IMG/VR virus record: IMGVR_UViG_3300047383_000862
DNA length: 55,105 nt
Strand: one strand, 5' to 3'
Source: an uncultured virus (IMG/VR IMGVR_UViG_3300047383_000862)
Taxonomy: Duplodnaviria; Heunggongvirae; Uroviricota; Caudoviricetes
The notes under the pieces are model-generated. The model made no database searches. It was not told the DNA's origin and saw only the letters and a program-made list of their open reading frames with translations. Made by a program: the position numbers and the translations under genes. Positions 2 through 37,400 of this stretch are shown in pieces (the first letter of the stretch is position 1; each line of letters starts with the position of its first letter).

Positions 2-3000
2 ATCCCTCATGATTATGACCCAGGCCAAGATGGCGGACCTGGATTAGGGTTGAATAGATTTCAACAATTCACAGATAATTCTTTGAGAAGTGCTTTCGAG
101 CAAGGTATGCAGACGTTTTTTTTACCGATGAGAGATGCAAATAATTCTTACAATTGCTGGAAAATGCCTCCTTCAATCGCTGGTAAAACTAGATTTATAA
201 AAGTAACTAGAACGGGTAGAGAGTTGATATCTCCAATTATGCAATCGCAAATATCATTCAAGTCTTGCACTGAAATTATCGACGAAAAACTAGCCTATCC
301 ATATAGCGCTGTCATCCAGCAATCCTTTAACTCTAGATATTTTACATCTAAACCTGAAAGAAGTTATCATTTAAGATTAAAAAAGATTTTAATCCCCGCT
401 AATTATACTCCTGATAATAGAAACGTTCCAGGATCAAACGTTTATTCTGGTAATTGGGATGGGACATTCAAGTACGAATGGTCTGATAATCCAGCTTGGG
501 TATTATACGATTTAATGACTAATAACAGGTATGGAATTGGAGCTTATTTAGACATTAATAAAATAGATAAATGGACTCTTTACAAAATAGGAAGATATTG
601 TGATGCGGTAGATGATAGTGGGAATTTTGTAGGCGTAGATAATACTTATAATGGAAAAGAGCCTCGTTATACATTTAACGCAATAATTAGTAGAGAAGAA
701 GAAGCTTATAATTTACTTAAAACAATATCAGAAACTTTTCATGGAATGGCTTATTGGGATGGTAGGGGAGTTTCAATTTCTTTAGATGGTGGAGGAAATG
801 CTGTTTCATTTACGAGTTTTCAAAGTGGAACAAGTTATAGCGTCGGTCATGTTGTCGAATTTCCACACTCAACATTTAATTTTTATGAGAAAACAGCTTC
901 TGGGGGAAATAACATTAAGCCAGGTTATGATAATAATTGGCAGTCTTATTGGAAAAAAGTGCCTGGTTTGCAAATAGATGAGCCAGCTATAAATTTTACT
1001 AACACTAATGTAGAAGGAGGCACTTTTGCGTATTATACATCATCTAAAAGCACTAGATATACTGTCGCTAGAGTTGGTTATATGGATAAAAAAGATAATT
1101 TCCGCAAAAAATATGAATACGTAGAAGATAAACAAGGAGTCAAAGAATTAGGAATAATTAAAAAGAATTTAGAGCCATTGGGTTGTACCTCTAGAGGTCA
1201 AGCTAGGAGAATGGGTAGATGGTTTTTCTTAACTTCAGCGATGAACACGGAAACTATAACCTTCACGACAGATTATAGAGCAGTCTTTCTTAAGCCTGGT
1301 AACATCATTAGTGTTAGCGATAGTTTGAAAAACACTAATCAATCTATAGGGAAAATTATAGAAATAAAAAATCAAGATACTCTAGTTTTAACGCATCCAA
1401 TATCATTAAAAACTCAAGAAGCTGGAAATTTATCTAACAGAGAATATTTTAATATAATTATAGGTAATATAGATCCAAGCTTTGATGTAAATTTTTTAGA
1501 TCAAAAAGGAGCGGTTTCAGCTCAAGATATTGAAGACTTGAATAAAGCGCAAAGAATAGAAGGTACAGTTTATCCTGCTGACGGGTCTTCCGAAATTACA
1601 AACGAAATTAAAGTAAAAAACTCCAGTGGGTCTTTCATTAATTTTACAACAGATATTCAAGATAAATACAATAACGATAGTTTAGAAGTTGTTTTAAAGG
1701 GGGCTGATTGGGCTTTGGTTGCTCCAAGCGATGGAAAAGCATATGTAGATGCTTGGAAAGAAAGAAAGTATAGAGTGCAGTCTATAGAAGAATCTTCTCA
1801 AGGCAAGTACGTAATTTCTGCAGTTCATTTTGATGAAGAAAAGCTTTCTTCAATGGATCAAACATTTCCTGTGATAACTCCAGAGTTTGATATAGAAATC
1901 GGAAACGCCTCTGAAGCTGTTAATGTAGGATCACCTGTTATAGAAAAATTTACTTATAAAAAAACTGATCCATTGAGTTTTGATTGTAAATTTTATACAA
2001 ATGTTGATGAAAAAAATTTAACGAATGTCACAAGCACTCTTCAATTGATATCTCCATTGGGAGTTGTAACTGATTATAGTTATTTAGTTGGAGCGGGGGC
2101 TGGAGCAAAAAAAATTACTATACCTACTTCTGTCGCTAAATCGAGCTCTGCCGCCTCAGGGGTGTGGACAGTTATTGTCTCAACAAATGCTCAAGTTAAA
2201 TCAAGCGGACAAAATAAAAGCTCGGCAAGTAGCTCTCTGGCGACTTTAATAGAAGACCAGCAATTTTCTCCTAGCGCAAACCCTCAAGTTTCGAATTTTG
2301 GGCTTTATTTTGATGGGCAATATACAACTAGTGAAGCATTCGTCACTCAGGCCAACCAAACTTTTGGTTTGCAATGGTCATATACCGATATTAATTTAAA
2401 TTCTACTGTTTATACAAATTATGTAGAATTAATTAGCCAAAGTACATTTTTTCAAGGATTTAAAGTTGGCCTGACATATTTATCTGGCACTACGCCTCAA
2501 AGCAGCCAAATTAAATGGATACATGATAATAATAATTTATTGCGAAATTTATCTTTTAATTTTAAATATGACGAAAGATACAAATTAGTAACAGATTCTA
2601 GTAATAACTTTTTGTTTGCATTCCCAGCTCTCGAAGATAAAAGAGATATAGCAGTTGTTGTACAGGCAGTAGCTAAAGCTGGGGGTATACTGAGAAGATC
2701 AACTTATCAGTATTTTAAAATTTATAATCAACAATCTGCGTATACAAGTGAGTTAACCTCAACAGTGGGTAAATTTATATTAGATGACACTTTATTTTTT
2801 GATTTAGATAGAGATAAAAGTATTCATATTTTTACTACTAATGATGAGGGCGAGCAAGTGGAGCAGGAAATTACTAATCATCAGGATATTCCTGATGGCG
2901 CTAGATGGAATTATGTACAAGAATTGACAGATGCAGGTTATACCGATTTAATTGATATATATAGTCCAGATCAAACTACAGAACTATATGCTAGAATTAA

Positions 3001-4459
3001 AGATAGAACAATTAATGCATTTAGGCCTAACCGACTGACATCCAGAAGCTTTTCCTGGGGCTTTGGCAGAAAAATGAATATTTTTAACTTATTTAAAAAT
3101 AGGTCTTCAAATTATTTTGCTCCTATTTCATTCGATAATATAGCTTTAATAGCTGAAGAGTATGAGGAAAATGGCTCGCAATACTTTCCTCCCGCAGCTA
3201 CAGACGCAGTGAATACTCACTTCAATAATTATATAGCTATAGCAGCTCAAAAAGTTGATGGTGTTGGCGATTCAGAGATGGCAGCTCAATTAGGTACATG
3301 GAATCCAACCTCTCTTGTCATGAATGACAGTAACAAAGGAGTTTTTCAGGCCAATCTTCCCGAAGAAGCAGGCGCAAACACCTTAGTCGGCATTAACTCT
3401 ATTTCAATCGACGTAAGCGGTGACGCGGGTTCATATTTTACAAAAAATGTCGGCAAGAATATTTTGTTCGTAGGAGAATCTCCAGACTTTACTCCAACAG
3501 TTGATAATATATTAGCAGAAAATAATTCTTCTTCTTTTGAGATTAACTTTGATGATTCGGCAGAAGAGGGCATAAACAGTGACGCTTCATACTATTTCAA
3601 AATTAGAGTATATGATGCCCATGATTGGAAAAATAGTCTATTTGAAGAATTAGATAAATTAAATGAAGTTCCATATCAGGAAATTAATTTCGGCAATACA
3701 GGATACATGATCATTAGTGAGGATGACTTGCAAGTTGGAGACGAAGACGAAGAGGAAGCAGAGCAAATAGCTCAGTTAGGACAAAACTTTTTACCAATGG
3801 TTGGAGATCAAAGGCTTGTTGGGATGAAGCAATTTAGAGAAGGGATGATTATAGGAGGAACGAATACATGGGAAATTGATGATGGAGCATCAAGTCATCC
3901 AAATTCTTTTGTTAAATATCCGCTTGCTACTCATACTAACTATCAAGGTAGCCCCGTCGGCATTGGACAATATAATCTTGAAAGCTTAGTTAGTAAAACT
4001 TATTCTGATTTAAATGGAGAAGGTGACAGCTCTAATTCTCTTAGTTCTACTAAAGGCAGTCTAGATTCAGACATGCTAGATTTTTATGTGAATATTAAAG
4101 GAATGAACTTAAGATGTGTTGAAGGCGATGGAGGTAACTACGATGGTATAGGAGGAATGATATCTGGCTCTGTAATTAAAACAGCAGGTTTCGAGGCAGG
4201 CCAAATAGTAACTTTTGCAAATGAACCAATGATAGGGGACTCTCCAATGTCTAGTTATTTTTCTGAAGGAGAAGGTGTATCTGGAAAAATAGAAGATGCC
4301 TTAAACTCCACAACTATTTTTGATAATAAAATACAAGATACAGATTTTACTAAGGACTTAGTTATATCTGGAGATTCAAGATTAAAAGTTGAAGACGGTA
4401 ATCTTCATATAGAAGTTAATGGTATATGGTATAAAATTATACCTGATGGCACATCTTAA
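2..4459 (+). CDS. Tail tip / host-specificity protein (lambda gpJ/TipJ-like), 5'-truncated
   Basis: Frame is open from base 2 (IPHDYDPG...). gpJ motifs: YPYSA, YSGNWDGTFK..WSDNPAWVLYDLMTNNRYGIG, IDKWTLY.IGRYCD, EPRYTFN, GCTSRGQARRMGRW; long variable C-terminus. Confidence 0.9.
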   Translation: MPHDYDPGQDGGPGLGLNRFQQFTDNSLRSAFEQGMQTFFLPMRDANNSYNCWKMPPSIAGKTRFIKVTRTGRELISPIMQSQISFKSCTEIIDEKLAYPYSAVIQQSFNSRYFTSKPERSYHLRLKKILIPANYTPDNRNVPGSNVYSGNWDGTFKYEWSDNPAWVLYDLMTNNRYGIGAYLDINKIDKWTLYKIGRYCDAVDDSGNFVGVDNTYNGKEPRYTFNAIISREEEAYNLLKTISETFHGMAYWDGRGVSISLDGGGNAVSFTSFQSGTSYSVGHVVEFPHSTFNFYEKTASGGNNIKPGYDNNWQSYWKKVPGLQIDEPAINFTNTNVEGGTFAYYTSSKSTRYTVARVGYMDKKDNFRKKYEYVEDKQGVKELGIIKKNLEPLGCTSRGQARRMGRWFFLTSAMNTETITFTTDYRAVFLKPGNIISVSDSLKNTNQSIGKIIEIKNQDTLVLTHPISLKTQEAGNLSNREYFNIIIGNIDPSFDVNFLDQKGAVSAQDIEDLNKAQRIEGTVYPADGSSEITNEIKVKNSSGSFINFTTDIQDKYNNDSLEVVLKGADWALVAPSDGKAYVDAWKERKYRVQSIEESSQGKYVISAVHFDEEKLSSMDQTFPVITPEFDIEIGNASEAVNVGSPVIEKFTYKKTDPLSFDCKFYTNVDEKNLTNVTSTLQLISPLGVVTDYSYLVGAGAGAKKITIPTSVAKSSSAASGVWTVIVSTNAQVKSSGQNKSSASSSLATLIEDQQFSPSANPQVSNFGLYFDGQYTTSEAFVTQANQTFGLQWSYTDINLNSTVYTNYVELISQSTFFQGFKVGLTYLSGTTPQSSQIKWIHDNNNLLRNLSFNFKYDERYKLVTDSSNNFLFAFPALEDKRDIAVVVQAVAKAGGILRRSTYQYFKIYNQQSAYTSELTSTVGKFILDDTLFFDLDRDKSIHIFTTNDEGEQVEQEITNHQDIPDGARWNYVQELTDAGYTDLIDIYSPDQTTELYARIKDRTINAFRPNRLTSRSFSWGFGRKMNIFNLFKNRSSNYFAPISFDNIALIAEEYEENGSQYFPPAATDAVNTHFNNYIAIAAQKVDGVGDSEMAAQLGTWNPTSLVMNDSNKGVFQANLPEEAGANTLVGINSISIDVSGDAGSYFTKNVGKNILFVGESPDFTPTVDNILAENNSSSFEINFDDSAEEGINSDASYYFKIRVYDAHDWKNSLFEELDKLNEVPYQEINFGNTGYMIISEDDLQVGDEDEEEAEQIAQLGQNFLPMVGDQRLVGMKQFREGMIIGGTNTWEIDDGASSHPNSFVKYPLATHTNYQGSPVGIGQYNLESLVSKTYSDLNGEGDSSNSLSSTKGSLDSDMLDFYVNIKGMNLRCVEGDGGNYDGIGGMISGSVIKTAGFEAGQIVTFANEPMIGDSPMSSYFSEGEGVSGKIEDALNSTTIFDNKIQDTDFTKDLVISGDSRLKVEDGNLHIEVNGIWYKIIPDGTS

Positions 4460-4987: not shown

Positions 4988-4993
4988 GTGTAA
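4988..4993 (+). promoter_or_regulatory. GTGTAA putative late-promoter element
   Basis: Recurrent hexamer upstream of gene starts; here 37 nt before the ATG at 5031. Confidence 0.5.
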
Positions 4994-5030
4994 TAATACT
5001 TATATTAACTACTTTAAATTTTAAAATATT

Positions 5031-5465
5031 ATGCCAAGCGAAATATCAGCAGGAACAAGTTCAATAACAATTACTGTATCAAGCGCTACAATACCTAGCG
5101 ACACCGCACTAAGTAATATAAGCATAACTCCTTATATAAATTCACACTCAGTTGGAGCAATGAGCGTTTCAGATTATGCAACGTTCGACTCAAGCGTATT
5201 ATCGTCTACCAAACCTAGCGTCGGACATTGGTCAGGCAATGCAGGAGCGAGCAGTTATGTTGATTCAATATCTCTAGAAGCTACCGCAATTTCTGATGCT
5301 GGCGGAGGGCAGACAAGTATAACAGTAGCTATTGCTAATGACTTGGTTGCCGCTCCTTATTTCAGCAATAATCATAAAATTCAATTCGGAACTCCAAGCG
5401 TAAGTGCTGGTGGAGGTGGCGACCCTCATATGAAGCCTATTTTTGGAAAAGATTATACTATCTAA
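5031..5465 (+). CDS. Ser/Thr/Ala-rich beta protein ending in a GDPH autocleavage-type motif
   Basis: C-terminus GGGGDPHMKPIFGKDYTI* resembles the first beta-hairpin of VWD-like domains; virion-like composition. Confidence 0.7.
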   Translation: MPSEISAGTSSITITVSSATIPSDTALSNISITPYINSHSVGAMSVSDYATFDSSVLSSTKPSVGHWSGNAGASSYVDSISLEATAISDAGGGQTSITVAIANDLVAAPYFSNNHKIQFGTPSVSAGGGGDPHMKPIFGKDYTI

Positions 5466-5997
5466 ATTCATGCCTTAATAGGCGCCAGCGATCTGAGTCT
5501 ATAGTTTTTGACCCTTCATTGATAGCAAAAAGCATATCCACTATTTCTTCTACTGAATTGTAAATGTATTTATGAGGAAGCATTCCTAGCATCCAGAGTG
5601 GAGTTTGAGACTTGCCGCCTTCCATACTGATAAAGATAGGTTTTTTCATTCTTACCGCAGTAACAATTTCTTCGGCACTGCCCCAAGACGCAACCGTTGG
5701 AACTAAATGAGCAATAATAAAATCACTTCTATCGACCAAGTTTAAGTCATACGCTCGCACAGTCTTCATTCGTTGAGCAACTCTGTCATATTGCTTGGTT
5801 TTCATCCATGTTTCCATTTCGATTCTAGAAGCTTCATCTTCTTCAACATCTTTCATGAACGGCTTTTCGTATGGATCAAAACAAGTGACATCAATTTCAC
5901 TGAGTTTTTGAGTAATTTCAGATCTCCAATTGCGCCCACTAATATATTGCATGTGTCCAACCAAATAAGTTTTAGTTTTTTCTAGAATATTTTTCAT
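5458..5997 (-). CDS. Nucleoside 2-deoxyribosyltransferase-like / nucleotide N-hydrolase
   Basis: TYLVG.M, WR, FDP, DL.LVDRSDFIIA, SWGSAEEI...KPI. Start moved to ATG 5997 because the promoter lies in the upstream part of the listed ORF. Confidence 0.7.
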   Translation of the reverse strand: MKNILEKTKTYLVGHMQYISGRNWRSEITQKLSEIDVTCFDPYEKPFMKDVEEDEASRIEMETWMKTKQYDRVAQRMKTVRAYDLNLVDRSDFIIAHLVPTVASWGSAEEIVTAVRMKKPIFISMEGGKSQTPLWMLGMLPHKYIYNSVEEIVDMLFAINEGSKTIDSDRWRLLRHEFR

Positions 5998-6003
5998 ATT
6001 ATA

Positions 6004-6032
6004 AATATAATATATATACATACAATTGTCAA
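6004..6032 (-). promoter_or_regulatory. Sigma70-type promoter
   Basis: TTGACA-17-TATATT, 6 nt before ATG 5997. Confidence 0.75.
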
Positions 6033-6259
6033 GTAAAATGATTAATAGCAACCCAGAGGAAATGAATTTAATAACGATATTTATGGATGTGAGTAAAAGT
6101 CCAGAGCAGACTTGTAAAGAAATTAATTTTGAAGGTTGCGAACAAATGAAAAGAGATTATCTTTCTGAGGTTAATACTCCTGGAGGGTGCTCATCATGCA
6201 GAAAGGCTAGTGTGAGGAGGAAGTATACTTCTTTTATAAAACCTCGAATACAAAAATGA
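6026..6259 (+). CDS. Small Cys-containing hypothetical protein (CSSC); start uncertain
   Basis: ORF coupled by an ATGA-type overlap region to the next gene; GGCSSC motif. Confidence 0.6.
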   Translation: MSSKMINSNPEEMNLITIFMDVSKSPEQTCKEINFEGCEQMKRDYLSEVNTPGGCSSCRKASVRRKYTSFIKPRIQK

Positions 6260-6585
6260 TTAATTATTTATTAATTTATATAGCTTGTGTTTTGTTTGTT
6301 TCTAATGTTATTGCTGTATTAGAATATACTAATTTAAAGCTGTATATACTATCATTGTTTGTGAAAGAAGAAGTATATACATTAGATGATTTACATGATT
6401 ATATAATTGATAATTGGGGTAAGCTGGGAGAACTATTGAGCTGCCCCTTATGTTATGGCACTTGGTTGTCTTTGTTTGCTTCTTTGTTTTGTTGTTGGTT
6501 TTTTAATTTAAATATAATTTTTGCTGGCTTTAGTATGTTTTCTGTGCCTAGTCTAGCATGTTTAATAAATAAAAAAATAAAATAA
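6256..6585 (+). CDS. Membrane protein, DUF1360-like
   Basis: LGELLSCPLCYGTW motif plus about 3 hydrophobic segments. Confidence 0.6.
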   Translation: MINYLLIYIACVLFVSNVIAVLEYTNLKLYILSLFVKEEVYTLDDLHDYIIDNWGKLGELLSCPLCYGTWLSLFASLFCCWFFNLNIIFAGFSMFSVPSLACLINKKIK

Positions 6586-7023
6586 CTAAATTAAAATTTG
6601 CTTATAATTTTCTAGGTAGCGTAATTGATCTTTAGATATAACTCCGCCTAAGTATTCTTTAACTTTTGGGTTATTTTTAAAAAAGTTTTCTTTGAATTGC
6701 AAGTTGAGGCCTCTGTCGGGAAAATCAACTTTGAGTATTAAATCATCAAGATTAATTTTTGCAGTTTTAATGGGTCCGCTATTGCCTTTTTTAAAAGTTT
6801 TATTGACTAAATATGATTCATCTTTATTGAGGCATCCTACCCACCCTCTATTATAGTTCACTTCCCATTCTATACTTTTATATTGTATCCAAATTTTAAT
6901 AAAATATTGACCTGGTTGTTGTATATTGTTTTCGACATGTGCAGGAAGGTCGTCAATTTTTGCGTTTATAATGTAATCACCTCCTTGCATATAGGCGATA
7001 TAATGAGGATTAACGTCGGTCAT
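6586..7023 (-). CDS. Hypothetical protein resembling a VWD-like domain lacking its GDPH hairpin
   Basis: Beta-rich pattern Y..YMQ...YIINAKI...G.YF.KIWI.Y...YLGGVI; directly downstream of the tmRNA. Confidence 0.5.
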   Translation of the reverse strand: MTDVNPHYIAYMQGGDYIINAKIDDLPAHVENNIQQPGQYFIKIWIQYKSIEWEVNYNRGWVGCLNKDESYLVNKTFKKGNSGPIKTAKINLDDLILKVDFPDRGLNLQFKENFFKNNPKVKEYLGGVISKDQLRYLENYKQILI

Positions 7024-7068
7024 AGATAAAAATATTTACAGAGTTGGGTGTGGGTTATAAAATAAATT

Positions 7069-7432
7069 TGGTGGACGTGGCGGGAGTCGAACCCGCGTCT
7101 TTAAATTTTCTGTAGATATACGCCTACAAGTTTAGTTAATTTTTTTTACAGTTATGATATTAACATCCAACTTCTTGTTTCAATTATTTACAGTTTGTGA
7201 AGCAAGAAAACTTTTTCTGTTTTGCAGATTGATGACCCCGTAGTCCTTTTATCTGCGTCAAAGGTTACGAGGTAGCAGAACTAAGCTGCTAGGGCAAGCT
7301 TTTTAGCTTTAAGGCCGAAAGCTTTAACACGGTTTTTGTTGCCATGTAATTGTTTGCACCTTTTTGAGGAGCCAGATGCAACTCCTACTTGCAGTATACT
7401 AATCCAATTTAAATCGAATCCAGTACACGCCC
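7069..7432 (-). ncRNA. ssrA: tmRNA (one-piece, 364 nt)
   Basis: 5' GGGCGUG pairs with 3' CACGUCC-ACCA, including the G3.U70 Ala determinant; GGAUUCGA after the 5' stem; T-arm GCGGG-UUCGACU-CCCGC; encoded CCA; tag ORF 7281-7343 GNKNRVKAFGLKAKKLALAA*. Confidence 0.96.
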
Positions 7433-7468: not shown

Positions 7469-8257
7469 TTAAGAAGAATGAAGTGCTTTAAGTAAAGCTC
7501 TTGCTTCTTTAGGAGGAATATCTGAAAAGTCTGACCAATTTTTAGTATCAGCATTTTTGTATAAATCGTTTTGCCATAGCTCTCGGAGTTTGTTTTTGAA
7601 CTCGCTATAGTTATTGATTCCGAACTTATCTTTAGCTAGGCTTGCGAGTATTCCAGAAGGAGAGATATCTGAATTTGATTGCACTTCAGTCTCTCTCTGG
7701 GTGAGATTTTGTTGAGTATTGTTAGATTTGTCAATTTCATCATCTCCAACGATGTGAACATTTAAAAAGTTTCTTACGCAGCGAACAAAAGCTCTATTGC
7801 AAGCAATAGTTTCTAAAAATTTAGTTGCAAAGCTGCTTGTATTATTTAGTGTTGCGTTAGCCATATCTTCAAAAACAATTGGCTCGCTATTAGTTTCATA
7901 ATTTGCTAAAAAAGTTATTGAACAAGACACTGCTACGTGGTCTTCTTCACATTTTACTGTCTTATAGTTTACAGAAGAAAAACCTCTAAGTTTTGCCAAC
8001 TCTTTAATTCCGCTTAATTTTATAAGGAGCTGGTGGTCAGCTAATCCCTCTATCGTCTTGGGGTAATCTTTGCCTCTAGTTTGAAACCAAGATCTGTTAG
8101 GAAAAAGGTGCTCATCTTTAATCATAGCTCTCCAGTTTATAGAGCCGTCTTCATTAAACTCATACTGATGGTTTTGTAGTAATCCGTTTTCATCTCTGGC
8201 ATAAAGTGTTGGGCCAGAGCTATTATCTATTTTTGTTTGCTTAGTTGTTTTTTTCAT
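7469..8257 (-). CDS. Putative single-strand annealing protein (Rad52/Sak-like fold)
   Basis: IKLSGIKELA..RG, beta strands, then ETIACNRAFVRCVRNFL helix; low-complexity linker and small C-domain; own promoter TTGACT-17-TATTAT (8267-8295). Confidence 0.45.
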   Translation of the reverse strand: MKKTTKQTKIDNSSGPTLYARDENGLLQNHQYEFNEDGSINWRAMIKDEHLFPNRSWFQTRGKDYPKTIEGLADHQLLIKLSGIKELAKLRGFSSVNYKTVKCEEDHVAVSCSITFLANYETNSEPIVFEDMANATLNNTSSFATKFLETIACNRAFVRCVRNFLNVHIVGDDEIDKSNNTQQNLTQRETEVQSNSDISPSGILASLAKDKFGINNYSEFKNKLRELWQNDLYKNADTKNWSDFSDIPPKEARALLKALHSS

Positions 8258-8291
8258 TGTTTATATATAATAACATATATTATAAACTAAG

Positions 8292-9455
8292 TCAATTACT
8301 TTTTGAAATAATTCTATAATGATCTGACTCTGACCAGAATAGTTCACTATCTATAATCTGATTTACTCCTGAAGAGCTTTCAAGATCGTTTACAGCATGC
8401 TCAATAGAGGGATATTTTTTTCCATTAGAGAATATTAATTTGCCTGAATAGAAGAACAGATCTTTATTGTTTAAAATATTATCGTCAGGCCTGTTTTGAG
8501 ATAAGATTTCTACATTCCAATCAAAGTAGTGCAACCTAAGTTTTTCTATAGACTCGGTAGTTTTCCTGAATAAGCTAATGTTTATCCCAAGTTTTTTAAT
8601 AGTTTTAAAATACTGTTGATTTTCTGCGATGACTTCTTCGCTGCAATCATCTGATATTTCGAAATGAATAACCTGCAGAGAACTTTTAATGGCATTAATT
8701 AAATTTAAATTTATTTTTCTATCTGTAATTAAATTAACTTTTCTGCCTGAAGCCCAAGAAGGAATATGCTCATCTGATTTTTCGTAATCTGCTCTCATTG
8801 TAATAAATGAATTTTTTAGAAAATCAGGGTTGGGCGAAAAATTAGGTATTACTTCAAAAATTTTATTGTCATAAAGTTGACCTATGAATAGTGTGTTTTG
8901 ATCGCTTTCAAATGGAATTTTTAACCTTTTAAGTATAGCATTTGCTATTTTTTCAGGTTTAATTTTATCAATTGATTTTTCTAACTCTTTAGATGAATAA
9001 GAAAATTTTTCTGTTTCACACAAAATATCGAATTTATCTTTATGCCAAAAGGGCGCTGTACAGGATGGAGGAATCGGCCCGAATAAAAGCACTCCTGGTA
9101 CGCCAAAGTGAGACGCAATATTTGAATAAAAAATATCAGAACCAATGAATAACTCAGATCTATTAATTATATAAGCTCCTTGGTGTCTAGTTTGTATATG
9201 CCGAAAATCTTCACAACTGGGCAATAGTTGATCTTTTGGAGAGCCTATTTGGATGATTTTAATATTAGATTTATCAAGGTAGGGTTTAATTATATCGAAT
9301 ACATCAGACCAATAAGAGTAATTGAATGAACTAATAGCATGGTCATTATTGATGCAGATAAATTTATCATGAGCTACTGGAATAAAGTCTTCCTGTATAA
9401 ATGCTTCTGCGGATTTAATTCCGCAATTAAGAGAAAAGTGTTCAAGTATGTGCAT
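8292..9455 (-). CDS. GT9 (heptosyltransferase-like) C-terminal half plus unknown domain
   Basis: YSYW..V, IIQIG, AYIINRSELFIGSD....IASHFGVPGVLLFGP. Confidence 0.7.
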   Translation of the reverse strand: MHILEHFSLNCGIKSAEAFIQEDFIPVAHDKFICINNDHAISSFNYSYWSDVFDIIKPYLDKSNIKIIQIGSPKDQLLPSCEDFRHIQTRHQGAYIINRSELFIGSDIFYSNIASHFGVPGVLLFGPIPPSCTAPFWHKDKFDILCETEKFSYSSKELEKSIDKIKPEKIANAILKRLKIPFESDQNTLFIGQLYDNKIFEVIPNFSPNPDFLKNSFITMRADYEKSDEHIPSWASGRKVNLITDRKINLNLINAIKSSLQVIHFEISDDCSEEVIAENQQYFKTIKKLGINISLFRKTTESIEKLRLHYFDWNVEILSQNRPDDNILNNKDLFFYSGKLIFSNGKKYPSIEHAVNDLESSSGVNQIIDSELFWSESDHYRIISKSN

Positions 9456-28426: not shown

Positions 28427-31400
28427 TTAAAAGACTGAGGGTAGTTTATACCCTTTGCTTTCGATTGCGTCAAGCATCTTGTTTCTGAAATAAAGCGTAG
28501 ATTCATTTTCATCTAAGTCATAAGAGAATCCAAACATTTGAGACCAGGGTTCTGTTTCTAGAGTGAAGTTAGAACTTAATCCAGCTACTCCACTTTCTAT
28601 GCCTTGTAGGTAGCTCTTGAAGGCTGGCGTACCTGTTACATGGAAAGAGTGAGCAAAGAATAATACGCCAGCTGGTAAGGCGGAAACATCTGCTTTTAGT
28701 TGAGTAATATCGGCTTGACTCTGTGTGTTGGTAGGATTATTAGAATAGGGCGAAGACTCGTCTTGGAATGCTAAAGATATAATAGCTTTGGCTCCTTCGA
28801 AATCATCTCCTGTTCCTACCCCTAACCCTCCTGTTCCATAAGCATTTCTTATATATTCCCAGTGTCTTTCACTGCCGTTCGCAAGGAATTTAACTTTTTT
28901 ATCATACTCATCTCTTCCGTTAGTAGCAGGATTTGTGTTTCCAGAAAATTCTGTTCCAGCTGTTGCATAAAAATCTTGTAAAATTGCTCTGAGTGATTCT
29001 GGGTTTCGTTCAGTAGTACTTCCAGATTTAAAGTATCCTCCAGAAAGGGCAGCTAATATTTCAGGCTCTGCACCACTCATTGAGCCTGAGGAGTCAAAAG
29101 TCACTAGTATGAATGTGTCTCTATTAAATTGAACTAAGGGAGTTTTTCTAATCGCTAGCCTAAAACCAACAGCCCTACTTTTAGCAATAGATTCTGCTTT
29201 AGATCTATATCCAAACTTTAATTTATCGCTTTCACTGTTCCATGCTCCGCCTCTAATAATTTTTTCTACGTCAGAAGCAAAAGAAAAAGGATTAACTACA
29301 GAATTTGGAGGGTATTCTTCTGCAACTATGACAGGATCGATGGTTGACTCGCCTGGATATTGCTCTTGGGCTGAATCGAGCACCCATTCTGAAACATTTC
29401 CATGTATATCATATATTCCTGAATTATTAGGGCTATAACCTGTTACATCTACCGTTTGATTTTCATCAGCTCCATCGTTTTGTCCTTCATCCCAATTGTA
29501 ATTGGCGTCTGAAGATGAGATGCTATTACCCCAGTGGTAGTAACCTGTAGAGCCAGCTCTTCCAGCAAATTCCCATTCTGCTTCAGATGGTAAGCTAAAG
29601 CTCCATCCCACAGGTATCAATCCTGTAAATTCTGTATTCATTATGCCTATAAACTTTTCAGTATCAAACCAAGAGACTGTTTCAACTGGTAAATTCGGAC
29701 CTGTGAATGTGCTTGGGTTTGTTGCAAGATTTATTGAATTGTTGCGAGCGATAAGTTCATATTGAGCTTGAGTCACTTCTGTTTTAGCTAGATAAAATTC
29801 TTCTGTTATAAAAACTTCTTGAGTTTCTTCGCTTCCGAGACAGTCTATGCATCCAGTAGTCATATTAGCTTCAAAGCTGCCAGTCTCTATTAAAACAAAT
29901 TCAATATCAGTTCCACCATAAGAGGCGTCAACGGTAGATAAATCGAGCACAATGTCATCAAATATAATTTCATTACTTGGGGACGATCCGTCGCCAAAGC
30001 CGTTTTCTACAATTTCACTTTTTATTGATGAGCCATCTGAAGTATTTATTATACCATCCCTGAAATATAAAATGTTGCTATTAACGTTATTCAGTTTAAT
30101 TGCTGGAGATAAATCGCTTACTGTGCTGAATGTAATTTCGACATTATAATTGTAATCAGTATTTAATTTTGCTTGATTTTTATTTATGATTTCATAAGCA
30201 CCAAATAAAACATGAATACCAATTTCCGTAGTCACCTCACTAAGATACCAAGCAATGAATCTTTCAACGAACGTTTCATCATTAGAGTCGTCTATTTTTA
30301 TTTGATAAGCAGGAGGGCTATTTCTGACTTTATTTAGAGAAAACTCATTTACTGCAGATCCGTCTACACCTATCTCTGTGTAAACTGAGGAGGATTCTGG
30401 GTTCATTGCGATATTTAATCCAGGATAGCTTAATTCAACTATTTTTTCTTGCGGAAGCTCGGCGCTAGACCCATTATTGAAAGATACTCTTATTCTTAAT
30501 AAGTCTCCTTCTTGTATTTCAGAGGAAACAAAATTATCAACAAGTGAAGTTGAATTTACTATATCGTTGTAAAGTTCATAATAACGAGTCAAGTTAAAAA
30601 CTTGAACTCTCGAGCCTGGAGTAATATTCGAGATTGTATATTCTAAATTTAGATCACAGTTAATACCCCAGTCTGGCTCTTTAAACATGATGTATGATAC
30701 ATTATCTTTGGTAATCTCGTGTTCGAGTGTTGTCTGGTTTGCAAAAGAAAAACGACTTGGTCTGGATGTTCCTTCTGTGCACCAATCTGATAAGTCTATT
30801 GTATGCAGTAATGCAGTGTTGAATGAGCCTATTGTAGCTATTGGGCCATTCGTGGCGTTTGCTGTATTGTTATAGACTCTAGTAGCTTCTTCGTGGTATG
30901 TTCTGAACCCGTAAAACATATTTGAGAGTTGATAATTTGCGAAACCTTGAACATTTCTTATATCAAAATTGATGTCATTTATTCCTTTAATCCCTTTTAC
31001 TGAAATAAAATAAAACATATAACGCCAATCTATGGTCGAATAGGTGGATTTTCTAAATCCTCCCATATTGAGAGGGCTTATATCTAATATATAATCTTGG
31101 TTTGAAAGGTCTTCTAAATTATCGTTATAAAAGAAATTTCCATTGGTTGTATATCTATGCGAGTATTCTTGACTTAAAAAATCATCACGTGACGCATAAT
31201 TTGGATTTACTGCCGTATTATAATCACTTTGATTTTCATTTAAAGATGTAAGTCTTCCGTAAATAAAAGATACGGTGCTCCCTAAAGAAGGGAATGCGCT
31301 ATAAAATAACCCAGAAACAAAGAAAAGGTCAGAAGTGTCTCCTTTTGATAAATTCGCTATTAAAGAGTTGATTTTGTCAATTTTTTCTTTAATGTTATTA

Positions 31401-34400
31401 TGGTGGACCGATTCGCTAGGACTTACTCCCTCAGTAGTTTGCCTAAAAGCATTACTTATGTTTATTAAATTAGTATCACTGCTAGTTTTGAATAAATTTG
31501 AATAAGTAGGAATTGTTACGATATTAATGTTAGTGTTTTCGAATATTCCTTGAATATTCGTGACATTTTTAAAACTTAGAGAAGATAAATCTAATGCAGA
31601 AGGTATTGCTGTTTGCGAACTATGATCTTTGATCTCAGAGAACATATAACTCATCGTGCGCGCGCTAGACGTATCCATATTAGATAGAACTAGAGGATTT
31701 AAACTTAAGTCCCAATAGTTAAACATATATGAGAGGTCAAGACCTTTAGATGTATTTAGCGTCGATAAGTCTAAATTTTCGAGCATTGCTTTTGAAAAGG
31801 CTCTATGAAAAAATACGACTGAGCTTGTGTTTAGTTTTGAAAAGTTGGTTGAATTTGTTTTAATTGCCCCACCGAGTATTTGCCCAGGCGAATATTCTTC
31901 ATACGACCAATGTTCGTTGATATTTCTAGAGGATGCAGAATTAAATAGGTTAGTTATATCTCTAGTCGCCGATAAACTTTCTAAAAAATTATCGGAAATA
32001 TTTAATTCATTTGCTCTAAGGTCTTCAAATAGATTGTCGCAAGAAGGTGAAAGGGCTATCTCGAAAGATCCGTACAGAGGGTTAGGGTTATTCGACGTGC
32101 CAATATTCTGTATATCCTCATAATTAGGGTCATTCATGAAATTTAAAATTTCATCTTGAGTATAAAATAATTTAGAACTTGCGTTTTGCATTAACTGTTT
32201 AATGAATCCTACTGAGCTGCCCACTAAATTTGAATTTATAAATTTTTTAGAATGATTGCTTATTTTGAAATTTTCGGGTATGGTTAAGGTATTTATAGAT
32301 AAATTATTAAACATGTCTGATACTCCCCCTCTTAATCTACCTCTAAAACTAAAAAAAAGTTGACTGTAGGGATCGGCTAGAAAATTAAAATTTCGACTGT
32401 AAATTTCTTCATCTCCTTCGTAAGCTTTTTCGAATTCATTAAATAGTCGATCAGTATAATCAAGTGGATGATCTGACTCGTTAATTTTTTCGAAATAATA
32501 TAGATTAGCTGACTCTTTCGCTTTTAAGAAAAATGGACTTAATGCTATATTAGTCGTTGGTGGCTGTTGCATAACGGAGGAGGAGACGCTAAGTCTCGGT
32601 AAGTATTTATCGCCAAAAAACTCACGGTAAGTCGTATTTATAGCGGGAGTCATACTGTAACTACTATAGTTATAGTGGCTGGTTTCACAGGCATTGGAAA
32701 TATCGAAACTTGTTAGGTCTATAGAATCTAAACCTTCTGAGTTGTCCCATTTGCCATTGATGTAGGCATCGTATTCTGCTTGCGTAGGCATAGTTGATTG
32801 AGCTTCTGTGAAGAAGTTGTCTCTTAGGAAATCAAAATATAAATAAGCTGATGGACTTTCGTATGGTTGTGACATGTCGTATGTCGCGAATGATCCAAAA
32901 AAGAGAGAATACCAACTTAGGTAAGTTATATCTTGGTAAACATTTAATGTAAAATCAGAGCTTGGAGGAATTATATTGTTAGAATTATCTCTTATATAAT
33001 TATTCATGAAATATGTATAAATTCCTCTAGCATGACGATAAAGATGATCGGGCTGGCGATTTGATACTGTACCAGAACTGCCTTCTGGGCCATATGGTTC
33101 GTATATAAATTCCCATACAGGATAAGCTCCCCCTACCCCTTCAAACATTTGCGAAAAATCAATCCCCAATTTAGTTGAAAAATTATTTAAGTTTAATTCA
33201 TTTATTGAATTGCATTCATAAAATGCCTGTGCAAAAGATAAGCAATTTTCTGGATTTAATTTAGAGAGATTAATGGATTCAATGGAGTGGCAATTCGAAA
33301 AAACATAACGCATTGTATACAGTTTATCACCTATCCAATTGCTACTGTTTATAGATTGTAGGAAATAACAATTATAAAACATAAATGAAATGTCGATGGT
33401 TGCGTTGTCTTCGCTTAAAAATGTATCGTCAAAATATATATTTTTAATATGATAACAATCTCTAAAAACAGAATCCGCTGACTCTACAGACTTTAAATTA
33501 AACCCTCTTAAATCTATGAAGTCTCTCAATCTTCTGCAAATATTAAAAGAATTTGAAATATTATTAATTTTATTTTTGAAATTTGGGTTTTTTAAGAACC
33601 TAACGCTTTCAATATTTTCATTCATTATAAAAACACTTTTTAAAGAAATTTCAGAATCTATTTCTCTATCATAAAAATTAAAGAAAAAAGATTTATGCTC
33701 TGGGATAACATCAAATGCTTCACTTTGTAAAACTGATAAAGCAGTGTCAATGCTTTCATCTGGGATGGTTGAGCTTGAGGAATTTTTACTCCACGCAATT
33801 ATATCATTTGCTTGGCCAGCGTTAATTGCGGAATATAATCGCTTGGGCGAACCTAAACTTTCAACTCCTAGGGAACTGTAAAATAAAGACGTTGCAGTAT
33901 TTATAGCAGGAAGATCTAAGGGATCGTCAAGATCGAAATATATAGACATAAGTTCTTCTATTTCTTGTGTCGTCTCAACTTCAAACATTTGTCTAATTTC
34001 TACATAATATGTTGAAGATCCAAAGATCCTGAAATTTTGCTGCATTGCTTTAACGTCACTTATAAAATTAGATAAATAATCGGAAAAGACTGAAGAAAAC
34101 ATCTGTTCTAAGTTTACCGCACTCTTATAATTGAATGCTAAGGAATCAAAAATTTTGTCATCAATTATGCCAAAAACATCATTTGATGATGAGAGCTCAG
34201 GAGTCGGGAGTAGTTTGCCGCCAAAATGATTTAACATCAGGCAATTTTGGAACATTGAACTAAAATCTCTACATTCTCTAGTATCAAAGAAGCCATTAAC
34301 ATTGTAAATTTGTATTTCTCTTTCTTTTCTAGTTCGAACTACTGCATCAGATGACTGTATTGATATTGTGTTGTCTCCTGAGTAATCCATATCTATCGAA

Positions 34401-37400
34401 ACTTCTTTTGTGGAAGAAATTATGTGAGATTCTGAATGTTGCTCGATCCATTCACTATTAATTTCTTTAAAAATTCTAAAGTTTCTTTTATTTATTCCTC
34501 CAGTAATTATTATGTTTCCGACCTTGTTGATAGAAACTAAACCTTCTTTAGCTAATGACTCGTGCCCATTTATGGTGGTGCCTACTTGAGTCCATTCAGT
34601 GCCGTTGTAATCAAAAATTTTAACTAAGCCAGAGTCTTCTCCAACCTCTGTATTGCTATGAGTAGCGCCGACAATAACCCTGTTGCCATTAAAATTTATG
34701 TCATTGTAGCCAAACCTATTATCGTCTGCATCTGTGTAAGATTTTACAATATCAGATCTGTCTTGAGGTCTTAAAAACTGATCTAGTTCAATACCTGAGT
34801 TTGTTTCACTATCATAAGGAACTGTAATTCTGGCAGAGATATTTTCAACTGAATTATTGATCCAATTTACAAATTGTTCAACATAGGGGCCTTGACCTTC
34901 TCCAGAATAAGTAGAATTGTATGTTCCTTGCAATGTTCCAGGAGGAGATCGGTTTTCAAACGATGTCGCTGCTGTAGTTGTCGCGCTAAATCCACTCTGA
35001 TTATTTATAAAATTAACCAAACTTATCACAGAGGGATCTTTGCCCATGCTTAAATACGTTGAACCTCCACCTGTAGTCCAGACTCTAAAAGTCTGATTAG
35101 ATGAAAACCTTGGGTATGTTAGGGTTACTGTATTATTGTCAATATCATGATCGAAGGTTGCTGGGGTTCCTGCTGCAGTAAATGTTAGTGTGAAAGTGGT
35201 GTTTACGTTCAGTCCAGCCCCAGAAACTGTAATGGTACCTCCACGCTGATAGACATAATTTGGTCCCCACCATTGTGGGCCGCTCTCTCTTCTTTGAACA
35301 GGTATTGTAAAGAAAAAGTCTTCACTAACATCTGCCGCAGAAAAATCTACATTGATTGCTAAATCTAATCCTCCATTACTTAAGACTGCCTCACTTGCAT
35401 TTTGATAAAAATTCAAAGAAAAATTTTCTACATTTAAATATTCTTCTGTTAAGTCTAATTCAATGACTCTCGCTGGATCTTCGGAAGCTCCGCCGTCAGT
35501 TGTAGCAATATTAGCAACTGTTTTTGTTAATACGGGGCTAGTGTCGGGCCCTGTAATTGTTGAGCCTAATTTAATCCATGTGCTTGAATCAAATTCAAAA
35601 ACCTCGACTTTGCCGACATTATTAGCCGAGTCTGTATTATATTCTGGATCTCCTATTGAAATGATGCTTCCATTATTATTTAAATTTATTGATTGTCCAG
35701 CGGATATAGTTTCACCTAACTGCACCCAGTTTGAATCTTCCAGAGAAAAGATTTTTGTGCCTTTAGTAAGGGTGATGGGCGAAATGTAGGCTGTCTGCCC
35801 TGATTCACTTTGCTCTAATCCTGAGTTATTTAAGTTTACGGCGCTGGATGCTTCTGCGCTAATGCCTGGCTGAAGGTTGAGCCAGTTTATTATATCGATT
35901 ATGTAAGGGTAGTAGACGCCATAGTTATTATATGGGAAGTTTAAAGTTAAGGTAGTGTCATTTTGCGTTATTGTTGGATCTGTTTCGGGCGCAGAAAATT
36001 CAATAACAAAGGTTGTGTATGAAGAATATGTCTCAGATAAATATAAAGTTAAAAATCCGCCTGGTTGATTGGCGAATGTTAGTACTTGGAATTCGACTTG
36101 GTGCGATGCGTTTCGAGTTAATGGATCTCCCTCTGTGGATATTGCAACTATATTACCATCTTTACTTATCGATACATCTGCTCCGAAGGTATCATTTGAA
36201 CTTTCTTCAGATACTATAGTGTCGCCTAACTGACCCCAGGAACCGCCACTCCATTCAAATATTTGAACATAACCTGAGCCTGTGGAGCCAGAATCTGGAA
36301 AATCTGATACAATAATTCTTTCTCCATTTTCATCGATTTCGATTGCATGACCAAATTTATTATAAGAATTTGATGGAGCATTAATTGTTTCACCTCTTTG
36401 ATTCCATTGATCTAGTGCCGCATCATATTCAAAAACTTTAACTCCTGCTCCTCCGATTGACTCTGCGTAAACATTCCCTTTCCCATTTATTTTTACATTA
36501 CCCTTGCCGCTGGAGCCAAAAGATGCCCCAAAATCAATAGACTCTGCAGGAACTGCAGCATTATCCCAGTATTCTTGTATATTATGTCTATCTGTGGCAA
36601 TAACTCCATTTCTGTAGTTATTAGTATGATACTCTAGCCCTATTCTAATTTCACGCAATGTTCGACAATTTGAAAATGCCTTACTCAAGTTTTTGGCTTT
36701 GTTTGTAGATAAACCGCTAAAAACTAATTTTCTAATTCTCTCACAATTGTTGAAAGCTAGTGATAGGCTGCGTAAATTTTTAGTATTGCAAGTTTGTAAA
36801 TGAAGATTATTTTCAATAATCCAGTCCATTTCTTCGGCTTCATTCATTCCATCAAGCTCTCCATCGGCTTTTTTAGCTAAATATATAATTTTAGGATTAT
36901 TTTCTGCGTGAGTAGAGAAGCCTTCAACTTTTGATAAGCTTCTACAATTTTGAGCAAACTGAGCTAAGTTTATTATGTTTGTAAACCTAGGTATTGATAT
37001 ATTTGTTATTACATAGCAGTTTTGAAATGTAGAGCTCGCATCCACGCAGTGATCAAGGTTAAAAAATGAAAATCCATCTATAAATGACTTATGATTTTCA
37101 AACTGAGCGTACTGCCCTGCGAAAGTCTGAATGCCTAAATTTTCTAAAAATAAGCAATCTTGAAACATGCTACGCGTACTGTAAGCTAAACTTTCAGTAG
37201 GTTTTATTGGTGTAGCCTCAGGAAATTCTACGAATCTTAAAAATTCTGAATTATAAAAAAAATAACTTAAATCAAATTTTCGAGTAAAGTTTAAATTTCT
37301 AATTTTAATTTTTTCGACATTAGAAGCGTAGAACATATTTTTTGATGCGCAACACAAATCTAATTCAAAGCAATTTAAATTCAATTCTGTATTTAAAAAA

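Follow-up and report, generated by a model that had tools for sequence, protein, structure and literature searches.

The stretch of DNA analyzed here (hereinafter, the window) comprises 55,105 nucleotides of the uncultured virus record IMGVR_UViG_3300047383_000862 of IMG/VR (Caudoviricetes) and contains two small genes, the open reading frames (ORFs) ORF 5031-5465 and ORF 6586-7023, that very probably encode the two halves of a single domain of the von Willebrand factor D (VWD) type. The first of these (5031..5465, plus strand) encodes a 144-amino acid (aa) tag protein that, as delineated from the ORF list and the family alignment, consists of a passenger domain, a glycine linker, the motif GDPH, and an 11-residue C-terminal strand segment. 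The second (6586..7023, minus strand) encodes a 145-aa acceptor protein that, judging from the AlphaFold2 (AF2) model and the VIA structure search, is a VWD-fold beta-sandwich without the GDPH turn and the strand that follows it. The two genes lie 1.1 kb apart on opposite strands and are separated by three ORFs, 5458-6051 (minus), 6026-6259 (plus), and 6256-6585 (plus). The first-pass annotation of this region, produced from the sequence alone, had described ORF 5031 as stopping 11 residues after GGGGDPH, and ORF 6586 as a stand-alone, 145-aa beta protein encoded on the opposite strand and three genes away; the ORF translation, the ORF list, and the all-beta model bear out this description.

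In the tag protein, the passenger (residues 1-126; 5031..5408, plus strand), which is beta-rich in the AF2 model, is followed by the tag proper (residues 127-144; 5409..5462, plus strand), GGG-GDPH-MKPIFGKDYTI, delimited by hhalign and by family conservation. The C-terminus of the protein reads GGGGDPHMKPIFGKDYTI, and the chain, with its final residues SAGGGGDPHMKPIFGKDYTI, stops 11 residues past the histidine and 13 past the aspartate; the putative scissile bond, Asp131-Pro132 (5421-5426, plus strand), is located within the tag proper. Because the next in-frame stop codon is 12 codons downstream and the 3' end of ORF 5031 overlaps a gene on the opposite strand, nothing would be gained by readthrough, and there is no hidden continuation of the protein. 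Six relatives of ORF 5031 (88-43% identity, 144-148 aa) were detected in a collection of 5.8 billion proteins. In the resulting alignment of seven sequences, G127, G128, G130, D131, P132, G139, and Y142 are invariant, and all seven proteins terminate at the same column. The AF2 model of ORF 5031, with an overall predicted local distance difference test score (pLDDT) of 68.9, is ordered up to about residue 126, and residues 127-144 have a pLDDT below 50 when the protein is folded alone. The passenger had a best Foldseek match of E 0.76 in the PDB and no usable match in the Atlas. Neither ORF 5031 nor ORF 6586 matched any Pfam or PHROG family (Pfam scan at E<=1), with sub-threshold noise only, and the same Pfam and PHROGs comparison of four passengers and three acceptors produced no match.

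By sequence comparison, the tag appears to be a conserved, portable module that evolves under purifying selection, and not a relic, because the same ending is found on dissimilar passengers and most of the changes in it are synonymous. At the codon level, the 55-kb window contains a single instance of the pattern G-D-P-x6-G-x2-Y-x2-stop, and none of 100 shuffled versions contains any; it is found once in G002 (203 kb) and twice in G003 (194.5 kb), two related IMG/VR records, and each time a small ORF ends with it. When the family profile and a DNA pattern of the tag served as queries, three further proteins emerged in which the tag ends different N-terminal parts, namely, the products of two adjacent genes in G003 (108 and 111 aa) and a 91-aa protein in the L016 record. 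Thus, the search for additional C-terminal GDP tags in this and related genomes that the first-pass annotation had proposed turned up one tag in G002, two in G003, and one in L016. All 10 tag-only proteins have exactly 13 residues behind the aspartate, and the Asp and Pro of G-D-P are invariant, with GDPH present in 6 and GDPI in 4 of the 10. The tags of the window, G003, and L016 have 11-13 of 15 residues in common, and the window passenger shows no BLASTP match to the G003 and L016 passengers at E<=10; the two G003 passengers are 32% identical to one another. Among the 15 tag codons, the window and the first of the G003 tags (G003_A) differ by 9 synonymous and 2 non-synonymous changes, and the two G003 paralogues (G003_A and G003_B) by 6 synonymous and none that are non-synonymous. 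A search of IMG/VR with the GDPI-tag pattern gave no match.

An exhaustive phmmer search with ORF 6586 over 1.84 billion representative proteins retrieved 12 relatives at E<=0.001, including 9 full-length ones (140-157 aa), 2 fragments (66 and 85 aa), and a 177-aa protein from a 914-bp contig in which the match is confined to the first 92 residues. All nine full-length relatives are stand-alone proteins, and an N-terminal GDPH segment is present in none of the 12. The stop-to-stop frame of ORF 6586 (6586-7035) adds at most four N-terminal codons and, therefore, leaves no room for a hidden GDPH. A further candidate, a copy of the tag strand within ORF 6586 itself (the NPHY...GGDYII start), was rejected, given that both the profile and the structure alignments place this segment after the tag position. 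The C-terminal segment of the acceptor is conserved (ISKxxLRYLxxxKxILI, with R135 and Y136 invariant), has a low pLDDT, and lies largely outside the aligned VWD core; it could be the site by which the acceptor itself is attached.

The AF2 model of the acceptor, built from a 14-sequence alignment, is all-beta (pLDDT 79.1, predicted TM-score (pTM) 0.75) and forms a beta-sandwich of the kind that characterizes VWD domains. The Foldseek list for this model consists mostly of FCGBP, MUC5AC, VWF, and MUC2 D assemblies, with probabilities of up to 1.00; upon re-alignment of this list, 29 rows have Z 7.2-9.7, all of them MUC5B, RGMB, MUC5AC, VWF, MUC2, FCGBP, or Cypridina luciferase, and are followed by a single row at Z 6.5 and then by Z 4.6. 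The VIA structure search, which covered 48,161 solved chains without a prefilter and is independent of Foldseek, placed MUC5B, RGMB, MUC2, VWF, MUC5AC, FCGBP, honey-bee vitellogenin, Cypridina luciferase, and the Tettigonia pigment protein in rows 1-19 (Z 6.2-9.7, with 107-116 residues aligned), with Z 4.9 in row 20 and 21 chains at Z>=5; these values are to be read against the tool's own caution that Z 7-8 is a common best score for models without a clear match. Because a single fold family tops the unfiltered list and is separated by a gap from the next row, ORF 6586 is predicted to adopt the VWD fold. The first-pass annotation had read the sequence pattern of ORF 6586 as that which normally follows the GDPH hairpin and had staked this reading on the fold being a related one; indeed, VWD domains alone match the model well. 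Animal mucins, VWF, FCGBP, and RGM are the main source of what is known about VWD domains and their self-cleavage at GDPH. Pfam VWD (PF00094) matched neither ORF 5031 nor ORF 6586 at E<=1, let alone at its gathering score, and the only match of the acceptor profile among the sequences of solved structures was at chance level (E 8.1).

The connection between the two proteins comes from relatives in which the corresponding parts are fused. P0011, a 619-aa protein encoded in the metagenome contig L007 (2194-4053, plus strand), combines a repeat-rich N-terminal part with a C-terminal GGGGDPH and a VWD-like domain: the chain continues for another 200 residues past the Gly-rich linker and GDPH, and three relatives of P0011 (593-632 aa) have 210-215 residues after the aspartate. 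The C-terminal domain of P0011 matches Pfam VWD with E 0.001 and 19.8 bits, below the cut-off of 22.9, and the C-terminal region of human MUC2 with a phmmer E of 0.0048 (7qcl_A), with the GDPH motifs in register. Residues 121-144 of ORF 5031 align with residues 409-432 of P0011 (hhalign probability 91%, E 1.2e-6), and residues 8-72 of ORF 6586 align with residues 437-501 (hhalign E 3.2e-4, probability 39%), the tag ending at P0011 residue 432. When the hidden Markov model (HMM) of the acceptor was run over 3,334 ORFs of the fetched DNA, the only match outside the family at E<0.01 was to residues 438-524 of P0011. In the reciprocal comparison, positions 3-25 of the fused-domain HMM match the tags (E 0.0014-0.041), and positions 41-137 match the G003 acceptor (E 0.032). 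By eye only, the neighbours of the P0011 gene look like PCNA and eIF4E, suggesting a giant-virus contig; P0011 may be a fibre-like protein with a VWD-like domain that acts as a C-terminal module and removes itself.

The structural alignment places the split at the same point. Residue 4 of the acceptor model aligns with residue 4094 of FCGBP D10 (8qci_B), 14 residues past Asp4080. In FCGBP, GDPH is located in the turn between strands beta1 and beta2, D10 is cleaved after D4080, the D4080A, D4080N, and H4082N substitutions abolish cleavage, and Q4094 mutants cleave partially (PMC10880436). Given cleavage after D4080 and an acceptor alignment that starts at 4094, 13 FCGBP residues (4081-4093) are left unmatched, which is exactly the number of post-Asp residues in every tag; thus, the domain appears to be split without overlap or gap. 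Altogether, three independent types of alignment (profile-profile, HMM searches, and structure) agree that the acceptor begins immediately behind the tag. As in other VWD domains, GDPH is found at the start of the fold, ahead of the post-cleavage strand, here on ORF 5031, but the domain is not contained in one polypeptide, its parts being encoded by separate genes in the window, G002, G003, and L016. Prediction of a complex from the alignments of ORF 6586 and ORF 5031 returned a score of 0.00 in two runs without controls and was used neither for nor against the pairing. The first-pass annotation had let its proposal hang on the existence of fused homologues; these do exist and are collinear with ORF 5031 and ORF 6586, but as remote relatives only.

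Fused forms were also encountered in bacteria. A scan with the tag pattern of one genome per prokaryote species returned 10 loci, five of which encode fused GDPH proteins, with 193-705 residues after the aspartate and a VWD-like continuation; these come from cyanobacteria, Chloroflexia, Desulfobacteraceae, and Flavobacteriaceae and carry the motif GDPH-x-K-T-x-D-G-K-x-Y-x-F. The 13-residue tail was found in none of the 10 prokaryote loci, and no acceptor-family match was detected among the 1,364 ORFs of these loci. Three of the remaining loci (L023, L024, and L025), with motifs 18-28 residues before the stop codon in frames without a VWD-like signal (E>=0.11 or no match), were taken as chance occurrences; in L022, the motif lies 112 residues before the stop codon, without a VWD-like signal, and L027 has no in-frame motif. 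From these comparisons, the fused form is the normal state, and the split form is particular to this group of phages.

The tag and acceptor genes travel together. Each of the four distinct phage records in which the two could be looked for (the window, G002, G003, and L016) has both, which answers the concern, raised in the first-pass annotation, that the two genes might not co-occur in relatives. A metagenome contig (L004) with a tag gene 100% identical to that of the window also has the acceptor gene. In G002, the tag is 86% and the acceptor 82% identical to those of the window, and the genes lie 9.0 kb apart on opposite strands. In G003, where the acceptor is 43% identical, the acceptor gene, a 20-bp spacer, the gene for tag protein A, and that for tag protein B, which overlaps A by 4 bases, follow each other on one strand. 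In L016, with an acceptor that is 27% identical, the acceptor and tag genes are divergent and 0.8 kb apart, with a gene for a 275-aa protein between them. Thus, in three diverged phage lineages with acceptors that share 27-43% identity, the tag gene is found within 20 bp to 1.1 kb of the acceptor gene. The contig L006 (41 kb) encodes a GDPI-type protein that is a true homologue of ORF 5031 (43-44% identity); another contig, L005, is, at 1.2 kb, too short for co-occurrence to be judged.

The window belongs to a large phage: the related IMG/VR records are 194.5-203 kb in size and are rated 100% complete. A single ORF at 28427-43273 of the window (minus strand) encodes 4,948 aa. Blastn and tblastn searches of the GenBank phage collection with the region and with each of the two proteins gave no match; the nearest record, G001 (28 kb), has no tag, and a single-protein locus search with P0021 gave no match. 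A central tail fibre J-like gene is located at 50-4459 of the window (phrog_31, E 1.4e-98), and the position of ORF 5031 behind this gene is also kept in G002, which suggests that the passenger is a virion accessory protein. The gene at 5458..6051 (minus strand), between the tag and acceptor genes, encodes a nucleoside 2-deoxyribosyltransferase-like protein (Pfam PF15891, E 5.5e-6, below the gathering score) and overlaps the last 8 bases of ORF 5031; by eye, the product of 7903-8481 (minus strand) in L016, next to the acceptor gene, is its close homologue. Although a neighbour in two lineages, this gene is probably no part of the mechanism. In G003, the row of acceptor, tag, and tag genes is followed by a gene for Peptidase_C92, a YiiX/YaeF-like permuted papain (L009 11136-11735, plus strand; Pfam E 8.3e-14). 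In the window, ORF 6586 is immediately preceded, on its own strand, by a phage-encoded transfer-messenger RNA (tmRNA) gene (7069-7432, minus strand), with the tag peptide GNKNRVKAFGLKAKKLALAA according to ARAGORN and an Rfam RF00023 score of 133 bits against a gathering score of 47.

According to the first-pass annotation, both genes lie downstream of GTGTAA-type elements. This holds for ORF 5031, which is preceded by such an element at 4988-4995, 36 nt before the start codon, but not for ORF 6586, which has CTGTAAAT upstream instead. GTGTAAWA occurs 11 times in the window versus 4.8 expected, with 3 of 100 shuffled sequences reaching 11, a weak enrichment, and may be a promoter-like element.

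From the homology of the tag to VWD domains, the fold of the acceptor, the fit at the split point, and the co-occurrence of the genes, we infer assembly in trans and Asp-Pro cleavage. In the scheme that we propose, the disordered tail of the tag protein would insert into the acceptor as the missing strand or strands, by donor-strand complementation; this insertion would rebuild the strained GDPH turn, and Asp131-Pro132 would then self-cleave as in mucins, FCGBP, and RGM. The products would be a passenger ending in ...GGGGD and a 13-residue peptide retained in the acceptor, which would act as a detachable, trans-acting pro-domain or as a docking module for any tagged protein. Together, the two proteins look like a natural pair of tag and catcher. 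Cleavage at Asp131-Pro132 is proposed because G-D-P, which is not part of the pairing strand, is nevertheless invariant in all 10 tags. Given the location of ORF 5031 behind the tail-fibre J-like gene, we favour maturation or virion attachment of small accessory proteins as the biological role. That the two proteins form one VWD-type domain is, as said above, very probable; the full mechanism, cleavage included, is an explanation toward which we lean by a modest degree.

Several observations weigh against this scheme. Four of the 10 tags have GDPI, whereas the change of the histidine to asparagine in FCGBP stops cleavage, and there are no cysteines to tie the fragments together as there are in FCGBP. 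Since the acceptor model is confident when the protein is folded alone (pTM 0.75), the incompleteness of its beta-sheet could not be demonstrated. Foldseek found no match to this model at E<=0.001, the best one being 9.9e-3, and the caution on the Z scores given above applies as well. At the sequence level, the acceptor is only weakly connected to the fused domain, as the hhalign probability indicates, and the match of the window acceptor to the fused-domain HMM is non-significant (E 8.3). The tag and the acceptor do not form one operon everywhere, because the genes are on opposite strands in the window and 9 kb apart in G002. Finally, L006 has no clear acceptor gene within 10 kb on either side of the tag gene, about half of this contig. 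A 208-aa protein encoded directly upstream was considered as a distant acceptor (hmmsearch E 0.066, hhalign probability 13%); its Atlas features point weakly toward ankyrin-like clusters. Two large genes of L006 (6017-9336, plus strand; products of 679 and 440 aa with signal-like N-termini) look bacterial by eye, and the contig may be chimeric or include a prophage border.

The main rival, although a rather unlikely one, is that the tag only docks: it would serve as a donor strand in the acceptor without being cleaved, and the acceptor would be an adaptor by which different small proteins with the tag are anchored on a phage structure, perhaps via its conserved C-terminal segment. All that speaks for the split fold and for co-occurrence fits this explanation equally well. 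The GDPI variants, which lack the histidine that FCGBP cleavage requires, are more readily accommodated by it, as are the presence in G003 of two tag proteins per one acceptor and the conserved, low-pLDDT C-terminal segment of the acceptor, with the invariant R135 and Y136, outside the VWD core. What speaks for cleavage is the invariance of G-D-P in 10 of 10 tags, although this motif precedes the strand and is not needed for strand pairing; non-cleaving VWD domains are not known to retain the G-D-P motif.

A further alternative extends the proposed mechanism to covalent transfer, in a tag-and-catcher arrangement. The acceptor would capture proteins that carry the tag of approximately 18 residues, that is, the Gly linker with the GDPH hairpin, cleavage would proceed via a reactive, cyclic Asp anhydride, and capture of the latter by a nucleophile of the virion or the host surface would leave the passenger covalently attached. 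We consider such ligation improbable. Its sole support is the shared GDPH chemistry; an exposed tag with a Gly linker would lend itself to a reaction of this kind, and the new C-terminus produced in MUC2 is reportedly reactive, an observation attributed to Lidell et al. in 2003. No candidate target is evident at the locus, and none of the computed results favours ligation. The FCGBP paper describes hydrolytic cleavage and stabilization, and a word search turned up neither 'anhydride' nor any mention of covalent crosslinks to other molecules in its main text (PMC10880436).

Just as doubtful is the absence of any functional coupling, with the tail of ORF 5031 being the remnant of a VWD domain that has been lost, or a C-terminal signal of an unrelated kind, and ORF 6586 an independent VWD-like protein that is its neighbour by chance. 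The opposite strands in the window, the 9 kb between the genes in G002, the weak sequence similarity of the acceptor to the fused domain, and the L006 locus without a clear acceptor would all fit such independence. However, a relic would not be expected to hold its length in 10 of 10 proteins, to change mostly synonymously, to be common to passengers without detectable similarity, or to persist within 1.1 kb of the acceptor gene in three lineages with acceptors that are only 27-43% identical; nor would the acceptor fold be expected to begin exactly where the tag ends. An artefact, with a single gene disrupted through misassembly, by a rearrangement of recent date, or by an invertible segment, is extremely unlikely, notwithstanding the fact that the acceptor gene faces the end of the tag gene from the opposite strand, which is the geometry of an inversion: there is no inverted repeat between 5420-5465 and 6960-7060 among the 25 longest pairs listed, so that an inversion or shufflon that would connect ORF 5031, at its 3' end, with the 5' end of ORF 6586 was rejected, the L004 contig with the identical tag gene has the acceptor gene as well, the G003 genes all lie on one strand, each with its own start and stop, and 9 of 9 full-length acceptor relatives stand alone.

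Among the known systems, the VWD/GDPH domains of FCGBP, MUC2 D4, MUC5AC, MUC4, and the RGM family are the closest to the split domain proposed here. They share the beta-sandwich fold with the acceptor and the sequence GDPH, then x5-G-x2-Y-x-hydrophobic, with the tag, in register with MUC2. The proteins of the phage pair differ from these domains in being two polypeptides that lack both conserved disulfides and signal peptides. ORF 5031 has no cysteine and ORF 6586 has one, and neither N-terminus looks like a signal peptide by eye; thus, both lack the conserved disulfides of VWD domains and, by this reading, their secretion. The phage proteins would be intracellular or virion proteins, neither half reaches Pfam VWD, and the cleavage is putative. 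In VWD/GDPH domains, the motif stands at the start of the fold, before the post-cleavage strand, as it does here (PMC10880436). The fused viral GGGGDPH proteins of the P0011 family resemble the phage pair in the Gly-rich linker and GDPH tag and in a following domain that is collinear with the acceptor, but they are single chains with 200-215 residues after the aspartate and a large repeat-protein passenger, and so represent the unsplit state; the bacterial VWD-like proteins share the GDPH motif with the tag and, unlike the phage pair, are all fused.

Other systems are comparable in mechanism or architecture only. In chaperone-usher pili, an incomplete beta-sandwich is completed by a strand of another polypeptide, a donor-strand principle like that proposed here, but this is a periplasmic system with an unrelated fold and without Asp-Pro chemistry. 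In naturally split inteins and in the engineered SpyTag/SpyCatcher pair, a domain capable of self-processing comes in two pieces, a short tag and a larger partner, which have to reassemble to react; the likeness to the phage pair is in this architecture alone, the folds and chemistry, Hint splicing and the CnaB2 isopeptide, respectively, being different, and the Pfam scan of ORF 5031 and ORF 6586 gave no match to a Hint/intein or CnaB family. The Peptidase_S74 domain of phage tail spikes is an intramolecular C-terminal chaperone that cleaves itself off after folding of the passenger; in function, the fused viral proteins might parallel it, but the domain differs in fold, uses Ser-Lys chemistry, and acts in cis, and it also had no match in the Pfam scan. 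The bacterial MIIA domain (DUF1521), described in NopE1 and in VIC_001052 of Vibrio coralliilyticus, self-cleaves after the Asp of GDPH, is calcium-induced and largely disordered, and has the motif in its interior (PMC6506597). Although the GDPH self-cleavage site is alike, the acceptor has, instead, a predicted VWD fold, and DUF1521 matched neither ORF 5031 nor ORF 6586 in the Pfam scan at E<=1. 'GDPH domains' are also mentioned for diatom adhesive proteins in a preprint (10.1101/2023.03.06.531300).

In the literature covered, mainly, open-access papers and preprints, we found nothing on GDPH or VWD domains in phages, or on a split VWD domain. To our knowledge, these are the first VWD-fold proteins noted in tailed phages, and a VWD GDPH domain that is split in nature and would act in trans, with putative Asp-Pro cleavage, is new as well. 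The purpose of GDPH cleavage is described as still open in the FCGBP study (PMC10880436). If the proposed mechanism is correct, the phage pair, with its 15-residue tag and 145-residue acceptor, would provide a minimal, disulfide-free system for addressing what triggers Asp-Pro cleavage, as well as a genetically encoded tool in which a small C-terminal tag is recognized, and perhaps removed or activated, by a partner protein; should the covalent tag-and-catcher variant be true, it would amount to a phage-encoded, enzyme-free protein ligation device. More generally, the pair would demonstrate completion of a VWD fold in trans. Given that the tag is common to unrelated passengers, it would represent a modular means of docking or maturing small accessory proteins of these phages.

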